Assembly: GCF_044324785.1 (NCBI RefSeq)
Contig: NZ_CP172127.1
Source: Escherichia coli
Lineage (GTDB): Bacteria; Pseudomonadota; Gammaproteobacteria; Enterobacterales; Enterobacteriaceae
Direction: 5' to 3' (one strand)
Length of the DNA stretch: 64,000 nt
Program-made: the position numbers and the translations under genes
Notes under the pieces: model-generated
What the model saw: only the letters and a program-made list of their open reading frames with translations
The model's database searches: none
Told to the model about the DNA's origin: nothing
In this document: piece after piece, positions 2,690-39,967 of the stretch
Numbering within the stretch: the first letter of the stretch is position 1
How the letters are laid out: each line of letters starts with the position of its first letter

Positions 2690-4840
2690 TTAACGCCGCC
2701 GACGGCGTGGGGATTTCGTTTTTTCTTTCTTTTTAACTATACCTTCAGGGACTTCCGGTTGCTCTATCGGAAATACCGGTAATGCATCCAGTAGCCGCTT
2801 GCCATAATTTTTGGTCAGCAAGCGTTTGTCGTAAATCACCACTTCGCCCCAGCAACCGTGGCTTCGAATCAGTCGCCCAACCTGCTGAATCAGGTTAAAC
2901 GAGGCGCTCGGCAGGCTTTGCACCTCAAACGGATAGCGGTTGAGGCTTTTCAGCCATTCTCCTTCGGTGATCACCACCGGGCTGTCGATGGGCGGAAAAG
3001 CGATTTTGTGGATATGCACCTGGCTGAGCAGATCGCCTTTCAAATCAAGCCCTTCGGCAAATGACTGCAAGCCCACCAGCACGCTACGCTCACCGTTGGC
3101 AACGCGTTTGCGGTGCAGTTCAACTAAACGGTAACGCGGCTGATCGCCCTGCACCAGCAACATCAGGCGTAAATCCGTCACATAGTCGAGAAACCGCTGC
3201 ATCGCCCGTCCGCTGGCAAACAGTACCAACATACCGAGATGTTTTTTGCTCTCCACCTGTTTACGGAAAAAGGCCGCCATTTCGGCAATGTGCTGCTCTT
3301 CGTTGTCGATGGAAGGCTCAACGCGCATCCGGGGAATAACAATTTTGCCCTGTTCGCAGTGGTTAAAGGGCGAATCCAGCGCCACAAAGCGGTCGCCCGC
3401 TTTCTCTTTCAGCCCGCTCATCTCCTGCAAACGCGAAAAACTGTTCAGCGAACGCAAGGTTGCGGAAGTGACAATAATGTGCGGAATACTGCGCCACAGC
3501 AGCCTTTCCAGCTGATCGCTGACACGAATACCCACGCAGTGAAACCAGAGATGCAGCTGCCCTTCGCGCTCTTCCCGCGTCGCCCATTTGGTCACCGGCG
3601 CACCGGAAGATTGCGCCAGAGACGCCAGCCGCCAGAGTTTGCTTTGCGCCTCGAACATCCCCAGCGCGCGGTTCATCTGCAAAATCAACCGATGCAGACG
3701 TACAATGTCATGGCTGCCGGTTTTCTCACTTAAATCGTTAAGAAATAACTCCGCCAGACCACGCAGCATCTCGGTGAGTTTTGCCAGCCGTTGGCAGATC
3801 TCCAGCACTTCATCAGGCAGTTCGCCCATCGCAAAACGGTGCTCTGCCTCCTGCCCGGCAGGCATGTAGAGGTTGAGAATGTTGTTTAACGAGGCGATAA
3901 GCTCATACAACTCTTCACAATGGGCATTCAAACGCTCGGGGATCGCCAGCGGAGGGATGGTCTTCGGGCGAAACTGCTCCATACAGGTAGCGACCAGTTT
4001 CGTGAACAAGTCCAGCTGTAGCCGATACCAGGGCGCGGTGATTTCGGCGCTCATCTCCAGCGCATCCCGTGCCACATCCGGCAGGTGATGACCTTCGTCC
4101 AGCACCAGCAGTAAATTTTTCGGGTCAGGCAATACGGCTTCGCTTTCCATCGCCGCCATCACCAGCGCATGGTTTGCCACTACAACTTCCGCTTCCTGAA
4201 TTTCCCGACGAGCGACAAAAAACGGGCATTCGCGATAGTAATAACAGTTGCGGTTGAGGCAGCTGGCTTTGTCGGTACTCAACCGACGCCAGAGATCATC
4301 ATCAATGGCGATATCCGTATGATCGCGCAGACCATCCCATTTATAAGTGTCGAGATCGCCCTTCAACTTTGCACAACGCTTTTGCTCTTCCTGATTGTTC
4401 GGCGTCAGCTCGTCGTCAAGAAACGCCAGCAGATCCTGTTGCGTGGGTTCAGTACTGGCAAGCGCTGTCAGATTACGCGGGCAAACGTAGCGCCCACGCC
4501 CAAAAGCGGCAGTGAATTTAAGATCGGGAATGATCTTTTTCAGCAATGGTAAATCTTTGCTGTAGATCTGATCCTGCAACGCCACGTTGGCGGTACTCAC
4601 CACCAACGTTTTTTGCTCTTCGCGGGCAATGGCGATGCCGGGAATCAAATAGGAGAGCGTTTTCCCAACGCCGGTGGGTGCTTCAATCGCCAGATGCCGC
4701 CCTTCTTCTCCGGCCAGCGTTTTGGCGACGTCCGCAATCATCTGCCGCTGCGGCGCACGGGGAATAAAGTCGGGGATCTGTTCCTGAAGCGCCTTATACC
4801 AGGCGGCAATTTGCGCTTTAAGCGCGGCGGTTAATGCCAT
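2690..4840 (-). CDS. dinG: ATP-dependent DNA helicase DinG
   Basis: 716-aa ORF with helicase motifs (GVGKT Walker A, DEGH box) and cysteine-containing region; a LexA box lies upstream. Confidence 0.95.
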   Translation of the reverse strand: MALTAALKAQIAAWYKALQEQIPDFIPRAPQRQMIADVAKTLAGEEGRHLAIEAPTGVGKTLSYLIPGIAIAREEQKTLVVSTANVALQDQIYSKDLPLLKKIIPDLKFTAAFGRGRYVCPRNLTALASTEPTQQDLLAFLDDELTPNNQEEQKRCAKLKGDLDTYKWDGLRDHTDIAIDDDLWRRLSTDKASCLNRNCYYYRECPFFVARREIQEAEVVVANHALVMAAMESEAVLPDPKNLLLVLDEGHHLPDVARDALEMSAEITAPWYRLQLDLFTKLVATCMEQFRPKTIPPLAIPERLNAHCEELYELIASLNNILNLYMPAGQEAEHRFAMGELPDEVLEICQRLAKLTEMLRGLAELFLNDLSEKTGSHDIVRLHRLILQMNRALGMFEAQSKLWRLASLAQSSGAPVTKWATREEREGQLHLWFHCVGIRVSDQLERLLWRSIPHIIVTSATLRSLNSFSRLQEMSGLKEKAGDRFVALDSPFNHCEQGKIVIPRMRVEPSIDNEEQHIAEMAAFFRKQVESKKHLGMLVLFASGRAMQRFLDYVTDLRLMLLVQGDQPRYRLVELHRKRVANGERSVLVGLQSFAEGLDLKGDLLSQVHIHKIAFPPIDSPVVITEGEWLKSLNRYPFEVQSLPSASFNLIQQVGRLIRSHGCWGEVVIYDKRLLTKNYGKRLLDALPVFPIEQPEVPEGIVKKKEKTKSPRRRRR

Positions 4841-33824: not shown

Positions 33825-36086
33825 TTACATCTGACGGTTTTTATTGAAGTTAATCAAACTACCCGCCTTGATAATCTCGCGTTCTTCAGCAGTCAGACTT
33901 TCCATATAGAGCGTAATCTCTGTTACCGGCGCATCTTCATGGATCACATAACCTTTAAACGTCGTACCCGGATTATCCAGCGCCGCTTTAATGCCAGGGA
34001 TGTAAATGTAATCCCCCACTTCAAACGCTGGTGCTTCCGCCATTTGCAGCGGTAACATCCCCCAGTTGATGACGTTAGAACGGTAGCGTTTAGTCGCGTA
34101 TTCCTCGGCAATATTCGCCAGACCGCCAATCACACGCTGGCAGCTCGCCGCCTGCTCACGCGCAGAACCATCGCCTGGTTTCACCGCATAGACCATGCTG
34201 CCAATTTCAGTTTGCAGCGGATCAATATGCTCCTGACCAGCAATCTGCTTAATGCGCGCAAACACCTCTGTCAGCTCACTGACATTCCCCGCCAGACGCT
34301 GATTTTCCAGCTCAGCAGTCGCTTTACTTCTGCCAACATAACCTGGATCGCGGCGTGACAGGGTAAACTCCGCCAGACCAATCGGATTTGAACGATAAGA
34401 AGATGTTTCACCGGAAGGAATCAGTTCGTCGGTGGTGGTCACTTCGTCGAGGATCTTCGAGCACACTTTGAGGACGATATTGTCAGTCAGCGCACCCAAT
34501 TCCGGCCAGTCTTTAATGTTCGGTCCGTAAATCAGCGGTTGCTGGGTCGCCCCTTTCACAAAGCCCTGATAAACACGGTTTTTATACGGCGTTACATCGA
34601 AGGCGTACTCCGGCACGTTGTCCCAGCAATCCAGCTCGCTGGCAGAGGTTAAATAGCCACCGTTTGCCGCAGTCGCAGCGATGGAACGAGCGTCCATCAA
34701 CGCCACTGCTGACATCTGCCCATTGGCTGGCTTAGAGCCTTCGCGGTTCGGGAAGTTACGCGTGGTGTGGCGAATACTCAAACCGTTGTTGATTGGCGTA
34801 TCGCCCGCGCCGAAGCATGGGCCGCAGAACGCGGTTCTGATGATTGCGCCTGCGCCAATCAAATCTGCTACCACGCCTTTTTTGGCTAAATCCATAAACA
34901 CCGGCTGTGATGACGGGTAAACCGCCAGCGAGAAGGTGTCATTGCCACAGGATTGACCGCGCAGTGCATTCGCCGCCGCGATGACGTTTTCGTAGTTACC
35001 GCCAGAACAGCCCGCGATAATCCCCTGCTGCACTTTCAGGCGACCATTTTCCACTTTATCCAGCAGCGAGAGTTTGGCTTTACCGTGCGCCACGCGTTCG
35101 GACTCAATTTCAATCTCACGCAGAATGTCGGTCAGGTTCTGGTTCAGCGTGTCGATTTCATACACGTTGCTCGGGTGGAACGGCAGCGCAATCATTGGTT
35201 TGATGGCGCTTAAATCAACGCTGATGCAGCCATCGTAGTACGCCATCGGTTGAGGGTTAAGCTGGCAGTAATCCTGGCCGCGACCGTGCAGCGCCAGCCA
35301 GTTATGGACTTCTTCATCGGTTTGCCAGATAGAACTTAAACAGGTCGTTTCAGTGGTCATAACGTCAACGCTGTTACGGAAATCGGTAGAGAGCGCAGCA
35401 ACACCGGGACCTACGAATTCCATCACTTTGTTTTTGACGTAGCCGTTTTTGAACACGGCACCGATGATAGCCAGCGCCACATCCTGTGGCCCCACATACG
35501 GCGCAGGTTTTCCGGTCAGATGCACCGCAACAACTCCCGGATAGTCGATATCCCAGGTGTCATTAAGCAGCTGTTTTACCAACTCACCGCCACCCTCACC
35601 GACTGCCATTGTCCCTAATGCACCGTAACGGGTGTGGCTGTCTGACCCGAGGATCATTTTGCCCCCGCCTGCCATCATCTCACGCATATATTGATGGATG
35701 ACCGCAATATGCGGAGGCACAAAAATACCGCCATAACGCTGAGCTGCCGATAAACCAAAAACATGGTCATCACCGTTAATGGTGCCGCCGACGGCGCAGA
35801 GTGAGTTATGGCAGTTGGTCAGCACATACGGCAGCGGGAAACGTTCCATACCGGACGCTTTAGCGGTCTGTACAATACCAACAAAGGTAATATCGTGAGA
35901 GGCTAATGAATCAAACTTAATTTTAAGTTTATCCATATTTCCGGACGTATTATGAGAAGAGAGAATAGACCAGGCAATAGTGCCTTTTTTTGCTTCTTCT
36001 TTTTTAATTTCGCCGGTGAAATGTTCTTCGGCAATTATTTCGTTATTACTGGCGAGAAACACGCCTTTTTCAGATAACTTGATCAT
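33825..36086 (-). CDS. ybhJ: YbhJ, aconitase-family protein
   Basis: ORF 33825..36110; start trimmed to MIKLSEKG (about 753 aa). Confidence 0.88.
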
Positions 36087-36139
36087 CAAATGCTCCAGAT
36101 ATCTGCGCACCGTGAAGTGCGCAGAAAGATAATAAATGG

Positions 36140-36273
36140 ATATACTCTAAATAATTCGAGTTGCAGGAAGGCGACAAGCGAGTGAATCCCCAGGAGCTTA
36201 CATAAGTAAGTGACTGGGGTGAGCGAACGCAGACGCAGCACATGCAACTTGAAGTATGACGAGTATATTTACA
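36140..36273. repeat. ERIC (IRU) element
   Basis: Contains gtgaatccccaggagcttacat and aagtaagtgactggggtgagcg, which match the two standard ERIC primer sequences as I recall them, within an imperfect ~130-bp palindrome. Confidence 0.75.
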
Positions 36274-37702
36274 GCATGTTCCAGCCGATCAGCATATTCC
36301 ACCACCACACTCCGAGGGTGATATGCACCAGGAAGGTTAATATCGTCAGTACCGCACCGACCAACCACCAGGATTTAATATCGTTGTAACCCACGCCAAA
36401 GATGACCGGACCTGCCGCGCCGCCATAGTGAGTAACCATGCCGCCATAGGAGTTGGAGAACAACAGTGCCAGCGCGGTTAACATTAACGGTGCGCCGGAG
36501 ACGTTCGCCAGCATGGCAAATACCGGTAACATGGCAACGATATAGGCACTACCGGAAGCGAAGAAATAACGCACGATAATGCTGAGGAAAATAATAACGA
36601 AGAAAGCAACGTTACCGTGACCATCAAATGCCAGGTTATTTTTAAAGACTTCAGCTAACCATTCGAAGAATTTCACTTTCGATAATAAGGAGCTTAAGCC
36701 GATAATACCGCCGTACCAGATTAAGGTATTCCAGCCGCCTTTATTTTTAACCACGTCTTCCCAGGTAACGATACCCAGCAGCAGCATAGTCGCCATAACA
36801 ACGATTGCCACGGTGGATTCATCAACCCCCAGTGACTTACTGAAAATCCAGCCCAGTAGCGCCAGCACAAAGACACCGAGCAGCATTTTTTCGCGGATTT
36901 TCATCGGTCCCAGTTCGGCAAGGCCCGCTTTGGCGATGGTTTTGTTATCCACCTTCTTAATTTCTGGCGGATACATGGTGTAAATCACCAGCGGGGTGAC
37001 CAGCAGCATAATGATACCCGGCAATCCAGCGGCCAGCGCCCATCCACCCCAGCTAATTTGCAGGTGCAGAATGTCGTTGATCATTTTCAGCGCCAGAATG
37101 TTCCCCGCCATTGCGGTAAAGAACATATAGCTGGTGGTTTTGGTGACCATGTAAATGGACATCATCAGGTAATGTCCGACACGACGCGGACTTTTTTCCG
37201 GTTCGGACCCCAAAGCCACCGCCACACTGTTGATGATCGGTAACACAATGCCGCCCGCACGCGCGGTGTTAGACGGTGTTGCCGGAGCCAGTACCAGATC
37301 GAGGAATACCGTAACGTAACCCAGACCCAGCGTGGTGTTACCGATTTTACCAATCAGCAGATAGGCTATACGTTTGCCTAAGCCGGTGGTCACAAATGCG
37401 GCGCTTAAGGTGAACGCCGAGAACACCAGCCAGGTGGTACCTGAAGAGTAACCGCTTAATACGGCGGTGGTCTTAAACGCACCGTCGGATAAGTTACCGA
37501 CCACCACCATTGAGGCAGCAACGGCAATTAACAGTACGACAGGTTCCGGGAAAGGCTTGATAACCAGCCCCACAATGGCCGCCAGGTAAATACCAAAAAG
37601 CACCCACGCCAGTTCGCTTAATCCTGCCGGAGCTGGCATAAAGCCAATAATACATGGGATCGCTAATATCAGAATTAGCTTCCATAACGATTTTTTATTC
37701 AT
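36269..37702 (-). CDS. ybhI: YbhI, DASS-family anion transporter
   Basis: 477-aa polytopic ORF; synteny. Confidence 0.9.
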   Translation of the reverse strand: MNKKSLWKLILILAIPCIIGFMPAPAGLSELAWVLFGIYLAAIVGLVIKPFPEPVVLLIAVAASMVVVGNLSDGAFKTTAVLSGYSSGTTWLVFSAFTLSAAFVTTGLGKRIAYLLIGKIGNTTLGLGYVTVFLDLVLAPATPSNTARAGGIVLPIINSVAVALGSEPEKSPRRVGHYLMMSIYMVTKTTSYMFFTAMAGNILALKMINDILHLQISWGGWALAAGLPGIIMLLVTPLVIYTMYPPEIKKVDNKTIAKAGLAELGPMKIREKMLLGVFVLALLGWIFSKSLGVDESTVAIVVMATMLLLGIVTWEDVVKNKGGWNTLIWYGGIIGLSSLLSKVKFFEWLAEVFKNNLAFDGHGNVAFFVIIFLSIIVRYFFASGSAYIVAMLPVFAMLANVSGAPLMLTALALLFSNSYGGMVTHYGGAAGPVIFGVGYNDIKSWWLVGAVLTILTFLVHITLGVWWWNMLIGWNML

Positions 37703-37777: not shown

Positions 37778-38830
37778 TCAGGGAAGAAAAACTTCACCGG
37801 AAAATATTTTTCTGGTTGTCCGAATAACAGATGCGCGTAACGTCGTGGCATCCTGACCTTCATTACTTAAATGAACGTCGAGCGCACCACTGGGGTGTTC
37901 AATATTGATATTGCCGTATCCTACAGAAGGGACGATTTGTCGGGTGACGGTGCCTTCCAATGCACAACTACTGGAAATGGCAATAGCTCCGGTTATCGCC
38001 AGAGCGCGATGGCAAGAATGCGGCATAAAATAACGCACATTAATTGCTCCGCCTTTCTGCGCTGGAGAAATAAGCACAGGTTTAGGGATAACCATATTAC
38101 TGACATCGCCTAAGCCCATTGCTTTACCCGCTTGTAGACGGATAGATTCAATGCGGGCTAATAATGCTTTGTCAGCATCCAGCTCCGTCGGTAATTCATA
38201 GCCTGTTTTTCCCAGATATTCAGCAGGAATAATAACAACTGGCATCGCCATATCGATACAGGTCACCGGGACATCGTCAAAATAATCAATCTGATTATCA
38301 GTCGGGAAGACTTTTCCGGTTTTGGTTCCGGCGGCATTCAGGAAAGTGAGCGCAACCGGTGCGGCAGTACCCGGTACGCCGTCAATTCTGGCGCTACCCT
38401 CGTACTCGACAACACCATTTGGCGTTTGCACATCAGCTTCGATGAACGTACCCGTATTGACGTTGCGGATACGTACGCGGGTAACTGGCGAAGTCGCTGC
38501 AATCAAACCATTTTCAATGGCGAATGCCCCAACGCCAGACAGCATATTGCCGCAGTTAGGCGTGGTATCGACACGTTGCTCATGGACGATAACTTGAGCA
38601 AACAGATAATCGACATCTGCACGCGGATCGCTGGAGCGGCTAATAATGGCGACTTTACTGGTCAGCGGATTACCGCCGCCAATACCGTCAATTTCCAGAT
38701 CGTTACCGGAACCCATAATTGCCATCAATATTTTATCGCGCTGCGTTTGATCTTCGGGTAAATGTTCCGCTAACAAGAACGCGCCCCTCGAGGTTCCACC
38801 TCGCATCATCACGCAGGGTATTTTTTTCAT
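37778..38830 (-). CDS. ybhH: YbhH, PrpF-family isomerase
   Basis: 350-aa ORF; synteny. Confidence 0.9.
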   Translation of the reverse strand: MKKIPCVMMRGGTSRGAFLLAEHLPEDQTQRDKILMAIMGSGNDLEIDGIGGGNPLTSKVAIISRSSDPRADVDYLFAQVIVHEQRVDTTPNCGNMLSGVGAFAIENGLIAATSPVTRVRIRNVNTGTFIEADVQTPNGVVEYEGSARIDGVPGTAAPVALTFLNAAGTKTGKVFPTDNQIDYFDDVPVTCIDMAMPVVIIPAEYLGKTGYELPTELDADKALLARIESIRLQAGKAMGLGDVSNMVIPKPVLISPAQKGGAINVRYFMPHSCHRALAITGAIAISSSCALEGTVTRQIVPSVGYGNINIEHPSGALDVHLSNEGQDATTLRASVIRTTRKIFSGEVFLP

Positions 38831-38914
38831 AATAATGCCCTCAATTTAAAAACATAACTTATTGCGATATGGTTACATTAAGGGCAAAGCATCTCTAATG
38901 ACTTTAGCTCAACG

Positions 38915-38937
38915 ATTAATAACATTTTTTCATTAAT
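38915..38937. promoter_or_regulatory. ATTAAT-N11-ATTAAT dyad (LysR-type T-N11-A motif) in the ybhH-ybhD divergent region
   Basis: attaataacattttttcattaat, about 75 bp upstream of ybhD. Confidence 0.35.
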
Positions 38938-39013
38938 TTAAGTTGGCTAAATGCAGTTAAAATTTTTAACGGCCAGCCACCCAAAATCGAGGCTTCCATT
39001 TTCCGGAGTAATA

Positions 39014-39967
39014 ATGAAGCATGAATTATCAAGTATGAAGGCATTTGTCATACTGGCAGAGTCCAGTTCATTTAACAATGCCGCTAAATTACTCAATATT
39101 ACGCAACCTGCATTAACGCGAAGAATAAAAAAGATGGAGGAAGATTTACATATCCAACTATTTGAGCGTACAACTCGCAAGGTTACGTTAACAAAAGCAG
39201 GAAAAAGGTTGCTCCCGGAGGCGCGGGAATTAATAAAAAAATTCGATGAAACACTTTTTAATATTCGTGATATGAATGCTTATCATCGTGGTATGGTGAC
39301 GTTAGCGTGTATTCCGACCGCGGTATTTTATTTTTTACCATTGGCAATCGGTAAATTTAATGAGCTGTATCCCAATATTAAAGTGCGGATTCTGGAACAA
39401 GGCACGAATAATTGCATGGAATCGGTGCTGTGTAACGAATCAGACTTTGGCATAAACATGAACAACGTCACAAATTCATCCATTGATTTTACCCCACTGG
39501 TCAACGAGCCGTTCGTGCTGGCCTGTCGGCGTGACCATCCATTGGCCAAAAAGCAGCTTGTAGAATGGCAGGAGTTAGTGGGTTACAAAATGATTGGCGT
39601 ACGCTCCTCCAGCGGCAACCGACTGTTGATAGAACAACAGCTAGCCGACAAGCCCTGGAAGCTGGACTGGTTTTACGAAGTGCGTCATCTTTCGACGTCA
39701 TTAGGACTGGTGGAGGCGGGACTGGGGATTTCGGCGCTTCCTGGTCTGGCAATGCCCCATGCACCCTATTCTTCGATTATTGGTATCCCGCTGGTGGAAC
39801 CGGTTATACGTCGGACATTGGGGATTATTCGCCGCAAAGATGCCGTGCTTTCTCCGGCAGCTGAACGCTTTTTTGCCTTGCTGATTAATTTGTGGACTGA
39901 CGATAAAGACAATTTGTGGACCAATATCGTCGAACGCCAGAGACATGCGTTACAGGAGATAGGTTAA
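39014..39967 (+). CDS. ybhD: LysR-family transcriptional regulator YbhD
   Basis: ORF 38951..39967 trimmed to MKHELSSMKAF (about 317 aa); N-terminal helix-turn-helix. Confidence 0.85.
   Translation: MKHELSSMKAFVILAESSSFNNAAKLLNITQPALTRRIKKMEEDLHIQLFERTTRKVTLTKAGKRLLPEARELIKKFDETLFNIRDMNAYHRGMVTLACIPTAVFYFLPLAIGKFNELYPNIKVRILEQGTNNCMESVLCNESDFGINMNNVTNSSIDFTPLVNEPFVLACRRDHPLAKKQLVEWQELVGYKMIGVRSSSGNRLLIEQQLADKPWKLDWFYEVRHLSTSLGLVEAGLGISALPGLAMPHAPYSSIIGIPLVEPVIRRTLGIIRRKDAVLSPAAERFFALLINLWTDDKDNLWTNIVERQRHALQEIG

Follow-up and report, generated by a model that had tools for sequence, protein, structure and literature searches.

The 183-bp spacer between the divergent genes ybhD and ybhH of Escherichia coli contains an interrupted dyad, ATTAAT-N11-ATTAAT, which from its conservation beside YbhD orthologues is almost certainly the site that the LysR-type regulator YbhD binds to control ybhH. 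Together with box 1, a third half-site lying seven nucleotides from the dyad on the ybhH side, it very likely constitutes the operator of YbhD in the control region shared by ybhD and ybhH, working by the mechanism proposed below. YbhD belongs to the LysR regulators of E. coli K-12 that are still uncharacterised, and the sole genome-wide binding experiment on it missed its own control region. That YbhD regulates ybhH is not new because the up-regulation of ybhH in a ybhD deletion has already been published (PMC9068703). What is added here is a precise, cross-validated three-box operator at 38893-38937 with a predicted promoter geometry, as well as a candidate effector, trans-aconitate, and a candidate activity, aconitate isomerase, both drawn from characterised orthologues. 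The regulatory principle is a textbook one, that of an ordinary LysR operator of a poorly characterised regulator, and the motif provides a handle for recognising this regulon in Pseudomonas, Halomonadaceae and Azospirillum.

All positions refer to the window, that is the whole 64-kb stretch of DNA that was analysed. The genes, the three boxes and the predicted promoter elements are the following.

39014..39967, plus strand: ybhD, LysR-type regulator of 317 aa (NCBIfam, Pfam, orthologue alignment)
37778..38830, minus strand: ybhH, PrpF-family isomerase, first gene of the regulated unit (NCBIfam, match to PDB 6OTV, Pseudomonas orthologue)
36269..37702, minus strand: ybhI, DASS-family anion transporter (TIGR00785, 553.9 bits)
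38915..38937, no strand: predicted recognition-site dyad of YbhD, RBS-type (sequence, cross-species conservation, matrix tests)
38915..38920, no strand: ybhH-proximal hexamer ATTAAT (consensus ATTAWT, with GCG often next)
38932..38937, no strand: ybhH-distal hexamer ATTAAT (consensus ATYAAT; overlaps the predicted ybhD -35 region)
38893..38907, minus strand: box 1, activation-site-like third half-site, CTAAAGTCATTAGAG in the ybhH orientation (family consensus aTaTTTGCATTgGA)
38869..38877, minus strand: predicted extended -10 of the ybhH promoter, TGtAACCAT (TG at 38876-38877, hexamer AACCAT at 38869-38874)
38958..38963, plus strand: predicted -10 of the ybhD promoter, TAAAAT, 20 nt beyond the dyad

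The dyad and the genes on either side

The initial annotation had pointed to an ATTAAT-N11-ATTAAT dyad between ybhH and ybhD, and the sequence bears this out: positions 38915-38937 read ATTAATAACATTTTTTCATTAAT, with copies of the self-complementary hexamer at 38915-38920 and 38932-38937 and 11 nt between them. The 15-bp core within the dyad, ATAACATTTTTTCAT, holds T-N11-A (inner T38920 and A38932). The same annotation had described the divergent gene pair with its T-N11-A as the classic LysR layout; this is equally correct, the dyad being placed between ybhH on the minus strand and ybhD on the plus strand, so that an interrupted dyad with T-N11-A lies, as in LysR operators, in the spacer shared with the divergent gene. 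The 64-kb window contains the exact pattern a single time, and 100 dinucleotide-preserving shuffles, which were built on whole-window composition, contain it nowhere; AT-only hexamers in an AT-rich spacer surprise less than these shuffles imply. When two mismatches were allowed, four copies were found in the window against 2.4 expected, which is no enrichment. Because the spacer is AT-rich and the two-mismatch pattern is unenriched, the shuffle statistics by themselves are weak.

The RefSeq E. coli annotation agrees on the order and strands of ybhI, ybhH and ybhD. YbhD gives full-length matches to many LysR-family NCBIfam models, none of them above an equivalog cut-off, and an identical protein (P0001) carries the precomputed domains PF00126 and PF03466 (HTH_1 and LysR substrate-binding), which places YbhD in the LysR family. 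All orthologues in the alignment (A1) share its initiating methionine at 39014. An in-frame upstream ATG, with an extension covering 38951-39013, gives a 338-aa ybhD frame, and the gene is annotated in this way in O157:H7 strain SS52. Since the orthologues all start at the 39014 methionine and the extension contains the predicted ybhD -10, the 338-aa form is probably an annotation artefact. The YbhD protein encoded here is 100% identical to an O157:H7 protein, and the operator is identical in K-12 and O157:H7; the best match of a 4.2-kb piece of the window to any complete RefSeq E. coli genome is 99.1%.

YbhH scores 514.8 bits with NCBIfam NF033377 (cut-off 440) and 186.6 bits with PrpF, and it matches PDB 6OTV, which is titled "putative isomerase YbhH". 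The next gene, ybhI, is probably co-transcribed with ybhH; the gap between the two is 75 nt, and a search of this gap for a minus-strand terminator-like site found none. Beyond ybhI lies ybhJ (33825-36110), which encodes an aconitase-family hydratase and follows ybhI only in Escherichia, Edwardsiella and Citrobacter. Its co-transcription is uncertain because 158 nt separate it from ybhI. The pairing of an aconitase-family hydratase with a PrpF-family isomerase (ybhJ and ybhH) recalls AcnD/PrpF of the methylcitrate cycle.

Conservation of the three boxes among YbhD orthologues

From an alignment of 17 YbhD orthologues and a scan of a single genome for each species we obtained 80 loci with YbhD identities from 97 down to 49%. 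They span Escherichia, Edwardsiella, Citrobacter, Klebsiella, Dickeya, Phytobacter, Kosakonia, Enterobacter, Celerinatantimonas, Salinicola, Azospirillum and Bradyrhizobium, with about 50 of the 80 coming from Pseudomonas. A YbhH homologue (54-99% identity) is divergent from and adjacent to the YbhD relative in 79 of the 80 loci, in gammaproteobacteria as well as alphaproteobacteria. In the clades examined a carboxylate transporter gene always lies 3' of the isomerase gene, and its family differs by clade. Escherichia, Citrobacter, Edwardsiella and Klebsiella carry a DASS transporter; Enterobacter, Dickeya and Celerinatantimonas carry one of the MFS type, with an FAA-hydrolase-family gene behind it (checked in Enterobacter and Celerinatantimonas); and Pseudomonas and Azospirillum carry one of the DctA type.

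Out of the 79 spacers flanked by both a ybhD-like and a ybhH-like gene, 77 yielded the dyad and box 1 with an ungapped matrix. The hexamer pair follows the family consensus ATTAWT-N11-ATYAAT. Among 78 sites (the 77 loci and the window), 61 have ATTAAT or ATTATT as the proximal hexamer, which never departs from ATTAAT by more than two mismatches and carries 1.3-1.9 bits of information per column; at the distal hexamer, 43 have ATTAAT or ATCAAT. Box 1 was not part of the initial annotation and completes the operator. On the plus strand it reads CTCTAATGACTTTAG in E. coli, with the family consensus TCCAATGCAAAtATC; its AATG core on that strand is present in 76 of the 78 sites, and the corresponding profile columns (p38-41) are 0.92-0.99 conserved after weighting for redundancy. 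In the other orientation its GCATT-type core (TCATT in E. coli) repeats the core of the proximal half-site 21 bp, or two helical turns, closer to the promoter. Mean pairwise identities, computed over the 76 distinct sites, separate the boxes from the DNA between them.

Proximal hexamer: 0.86
Distal hexamer: 0.74
11-nt spacer within the dyad: 0.48 (53 distinct versions)
Box 1: 0.73
6-nt linker scored between box 1 and the dyad: 0.35

The site thus travels with YbhD orthologues and is conserved while the flanking DNA diverges. The inner 15 bp correspond to the standard LysR box, reading ATAC-N7-GTAT in one Enterobacter sp. (L016) and ATA-N9-CAT in E. coli, and the strongest conservation reaches four bases beyond this box on both sides (ATTA...TAAT). 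The distance from the dyad to the ybhH start codon is 77-120 nt (median 95, and 84 in E. coli) and that to the ybhD start codon is 11-134 nt. As the first is nearly fixed and the second variable, the element is anchored to the ybhH promoter. Within the species, a 51-bp operator segment is found in 5301 E. coli genomes and shows at least 99% identity in 5135 of them, K-12 and O157:H7 included, and the whole 183-bp spacer reaches at least 99% identity in only 351 E. coli genomes.

Matrices built from separate clades recovered the same site. A combined 46-nt matrix scored 33.0 bits at 38893-38938 and no more than 2.7 bits at any other position of the window; on that value we rejected a second site, ahead of ybhI, that Rodionova et al. 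(PMC9068703) count as predicted. With a matrix made from non-enteric sites only, the E. coli site ranked first on both strands of the 64-kb window at 11.5 bits, the next distinct site reaching 6.7 bits over a background with a mean of -60 and a standard deviation of 13.9. Conversely, with an enteric-only matrix the spacer site outscored the rest of the locus in 59 of the 61 non-enteric loci.

Given the conserved hexamers and the variable spacer in orthologous intergenic regions, the dyad is more than a chance occurrence. One could still read the repeat as a random AT-rich palindrome or as nothing more than parts of the two divergent promoters, and suppose that no regulator binds it. The spacer is indeed AT-rich, ATTAAT is self-complementary and the two-mismatch pattern is unenriched in the window; moreover, the distal hexamer of Bradyrhizobium, TATAAT at 11-14 nt ahead of the ybhD-like start, may double as a -10. 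The conservation data already contradict such a reading: the dyad is found in 77 of 79 loci over a large evolutionary distance with 53 different spacers, the matrices are specific across clades, the half-site is repeated at 21 bp, and a distance of 11-134 nt to the ybhD start would be intolerable for a ybhD promoter element. We give this reading next to no credence.

Individual loci provided further observations. A match to the operator matrix was sought in the spacers of K. oxytoca (L009) and K. michiganensis (L010), which carry the same genes, and none was found. In these two loci YbhD, YbhH and YbhI are 65%, 68% and 80% identical, respectively, and the spacer measures 279-280 bp; K. oxytoca has an ATTAAT-N16-ATTAAT near the ybhD side and K. 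michiganensis a near-identical ATTAAT-N16-TTAATA. In E. coli strain E69 (L002, CP089930.1) an IS1-like insertion at about 2920-3800 lies in the 5' part of ybhH, adding about 770 bp so that residues 42-350 alone align, and the operator is intact.

Predicted promoter geometry and control of ybhH

In RNA-seq of a ybhD deletion ybhH was strongly up-regulated, and a malate-dependent growth phenotype was reported alongside these data (Rodionova 2022, PMC9068703); no YbhD site or motif is given in that paper. The suggestion of the initial annotation that YbhD controls ybhH(-ybhI) is supported by the conserved pairing of the two genes in 79 of 80 loci, by the linkage of the dyad to the pair and by this published RNA-seq. 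A ChIP-exo experiment with 8xMyc-tagged YbhD in glucose M9 yielded a single weak peak with a signal/noise of 3.57 (Gao 2021, PMC8464067), and the ybhD-ybhH control region is not among the YbhD peaks reported there. The peak (K-12 4066599-4066632) falls inside yihP; it was considered as a source of a YbhD motif and rejected, its best matrix score being -17.5 with no resemblance. In the literature searched we found neither a gel shift or footprint of YbhD on ybhD/ybhH DNA nor a description of a YbhD operator.

It is conceivable that the dyad serves mainly another protein, such as Nac, CRP or an AT-favouring nucleoid protein, and that YbhD acts elsewhere or indirectly. The Nac consensus is ATA-N9-TAT, from which the E. 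coli core ATA-N9-CAT differs by one base, and ybhH is a predicted CRP target by genomic SELEX. Regulation of ybhHI by Nac is stated in PMC9068703, citing EcoCyc, and the YbhD ChIP-exo data came without this region (PMC8464067). Against this, what is conserved are the outer hexamers and box 1 and not the ATA-N9-TAT core, which elsewhere reads ATGCG...CACAT or TTGCG..., and the motif accompanies YbhD orthologues as far as Pseudomonas, Salinicola, Azospirillum and Bradyrhizobium. The YbhD-like regulator is also the only neighbour of the ybhH-like gene that recurs in every locus, the transporter gene on the other side being of a different family from clade to clade. Nucleoid proteins, for their part, yield no base-specific conservation with a free spacer. 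We consider it very improbable that the dyad belongs mainly to such a protein. CRP-like and Nac-like readings of the spacer were also inspected by eye and rejected, neither being conserved beyond Escherichia.

Since a consensus scan of the spacer for a sigma-70 promoter found none, the promoter calls were drawn solely from cross-species conservation. Downstream of box 1 the weighted ungapped profile of the 78 sites is flat except for T61 (0.82), G62 (0.71), A65 (0.92) and T69 (0.89). We infer that this conserved TGn-nAnnnT is the extended -10 of ybhH, with a predicted transcription start near 38862. Such a start would place the centre of the dyad at -64 and box 1 at -45 to -32, the canonical LysR layout. 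On the other side of the dyad, TAnAnT is found at the position of the putative ybhD -10 in 6 of 7 Escherichia, Edwardsiella and Citrobacter spacers, and TAAAAT is taken as the predicted -10 of ybhD. As deduced from the position of this predicted -10, the ybhD -35 region would overlap the distal hexamer, which fits autorepression.

In canonical LysR promoters (BenM/CatM and CbnR type, ATAC-N7-GTAT) the recognition site is found at about -65 and the activation site at about -35. The ybh control region resembles them in its divergent regulator gene, in its T-N11-A dyad, in a weaker site 21 bp nearer the promoter over the predicted -35, and in a recognition site that overlaps the regulator's own predicted promoter. 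It differs in that only one half of the activation site is conserved and in that the dyad is 23 bp wide with hexamer centres 17 bp apart; this width is visible because the best-conserved bases lie four positions outside the 15-bp box.

The mechanism that we propose is as follows. One YbhD dimer would occupy the dyad, its centre at about -64 relative to a weak extended -10 promoter of ybhH, and the second dimer of a YbhD tetramer would contact box 1 at -45 to -32. In the uninduced state this complex would keep transcription from the ybhH(-ybhI) promoter low, consistent with the published rise of ybhH in a ybhD deletion; by also covering the ybhD -35 region it would bring about autorepression. 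With inducer, the promoter-proximal dimer would shift and transcription would rise, as in the sliding-dimer model for LysR proteins. The inducer would most likely be trans-aconitate or a close tricarboxylate, imported by YbhI and isomerised to cis-aconitate by YbhH, a route modelled on TarR/TarA/TarB of Bacillus velezensis and on the active Pseudomonas orthologues described below. Several observations run against the operator model. The 17-bp separation of the hexamer centres is wider than the usual 15-bp LysR box, so that the fit rests on the inner core, and the E. coli deletion derepresses ybhH whereas TarR is a pure activator. The E. coli cluster also departs from the tar type in its DASS-family transporter and its extra gene ybhJ, and the published phenotype concerns malate, so that the effector may be other than trans-aconitate. 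The ChIP-exo result for this region, the consensus scan that found no sigma-70 promoter and the two Klebsiella loci lacking the motif count against the model as well.

A simpler arrangement would have YbhD act as a plain repressor on the dyad, with a ybhH promoter that overlaps the dyad, a leader of about 80 nt and occlusion of the polymerase, and with no activating mode. This would agree with ybhH going up and not down in the ybhD deletion (PMC9068703). Moreover, E. coli positions 38916-38924 read aaaTGtTATTAAt in the ybhH orientation, an extended -10-like string overlapping the proximal hexamer, and the inverted repeats between the called -10 and the ribosome-binding site (TGCCCT/AGGGCA in E. 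coli, GACTCTTG/CAAGAGTC in Pseudomonas) would be transcribed only from such a further-upstream start. The TGtTATTAA string is nevertheless unconserved even in Citrobacter or Enterobacter, whereas TGn-nAnnnT at p61-69 is conserved across clades. In addition, the homologous TarR system is an activating one (PMC11495376) and the spacing of the dyad and the third half-site fits activating LysR promoters. Altogether a plain repressor seems unlikely to us, and we favour the operator with two occupied sites and an inducer-dependent shift.

Further repeats were seen on the ybhH side of the spacer. In E. coli an inverted repeat, TGCCCTCAATTTAA / TTACATTAAGGGCA, of 14 nt and 86% complementarity, occupies 38836-38849 and 38873-38886; its arms cover the ybhH ribosome-binding site and the predicted -10, a placement like that of the Pseudomonas repeat. 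The Pseudomonas loci (L019-L068) have a second dyad, [G/A]TTGAT-N11-ATTGAT, 14-40 nt upstream of the ybhH-like start codon, inside the predicted leader and in the same 17-bp register, which is flanked by the above-mentioned inverted repeat joining the predicted -10 to the ribosome-binding site. This second dyad could be a second operator or an RNA/DNA hairpin, and dyads and repeats of the Pseudomonas type are missing from most enteric loci. A leader hairpin that sequesters the ribosome-binding site was considered and rejected, being clear in Pseudomonas, present in E. coli and missing in most enterics; it was left out of the mechanism because transcription is predicted to start only after its 5' arm.

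Related systems and the probable substrate of YbhH

Among known systems the nearest is TarR/TarA/TarB of Bacillus velezensis FZB42, in which tarR encodes a divergent LysR regulator, tarA a PrpF-family aconitate isomerase and tarB an MFS importer (Zheng 2024, PMC11495376). TarR binds trans-aconitate as well as two promoter regions with three essential TTATAA palindromes, and Table S6 of the same paper lists Shigella homologues with 40.5% (TarA) and 35.6% (TarR) identity. As in the tar locus, a divergent LysR gene is paired in the ybh locus with a PrpF-family isomerase gene and then an importer gene, an order kept in all clades examined, and the shared control regions are of similar length (173 bp for tar and 183 bp for ybh). 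The TarR operator consists of three TTATAA hexamers in two regions and the proposed ybh operator of two palindromic ATTAAT hexamers and a third, related half-site, a comparison of the elements themselves. The active Pseudomonas TarA homologues are themselves the ybhH orthologues of the loci examined. The two systems differ in that TarR is an activator that growth on trans-aconitate requires, whereas in E. coli deleting ybhD derepresses ybhH, and in that the tar importer is of the MFS type whereas the E. coli one belongs to the DASS family and is followed by the aconitase-family gene ybhJ. We also scanned metagenomes for the B. velezensis tar promoter with primer-derived patterns; the first scan gave 0 matches and the second a single chance match (L082) that is not tarA.

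The initial annotation had stated that the substrate of the ybhH-ybhI pair is not established, and this is now partly outdated: the Pseudomonas orthologues of YbhH are measured aconitate isomerases (PMC11495376). The primers that were published for the active isomerases AI-7-1, 16-1, 41-1 and 32-1 match Pseudomonas ybhH-like genes with zero mismatches, those of AI-7-1 at both ends in two loci (L060 and L061), and the primers for the weakly active second homologues of the same study had no match in the ybhH-like genes of the Pseudomonas loci. The enzymes that correspond to the Pseudomonas orthologues show 88-102% of the forward-reaction activity of TarA (PMC11495376). YbhH is 59% identical to the L060 protein and 59-63% identical to the Pseudomonas orthologues that correspond to these enzymes. 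By analogy with these enzymes, YbhH probably isomerises trans-aconitate.

These data allow a broader reading, which we put forward tentatively and with somewhat more doubt than confidence. The three boxes might be a family-wide "aconitate box" extending from alpha- to gammaproteobacteria, and ybhD-ybhH-ybhI, perhaps with ybhJ, might form a so far unrecognised module that senses trans-aconitate, or a closely similar tricarboxylate from plants or microbes, takes it up and isomerises it, with YbhD repressing in its apo form and activating in its holo form. If true, three or four y-genes of K-12 would gain a function and a RefSeq name would be corrected.

The name in question is "4-oxalomesaconate tautomerase", that of model NF033377. 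YbhH passes this model, and LigU, which with GalD represents the 4-oxalomesaconate isomerases, is the nearest solved relative of YbhH after YbhH itself, at a clearly lower similarity (315-318 bits versus 770 for YbhH). Unlike GalD and LigU, ybhH does not lie in a gallate/protocatechuate 4,5-cleavage cluster: gallate or protocatechuate cleavage genes were sought in the neighbourhoods examined and none was found, the neighbours being a transporter gene, an aconitase-family hydratase gene, pgl and, in some clades, an FAA-hydrolase-family gene. NF033377 also scores above its cut-off on the ybhH-like proteins of two Pseudomonas loci (L056 and L020), where the AI-7-1 and AI-32-1 forward primers match exactly. 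Because gallate/protocatechuate genes are absent nearby and the model passes proteins from loci matched by primers for active aconitate isomerases, the RefSeq name has probably been over-propagated and is probably wrong for the YbhH subfamily.
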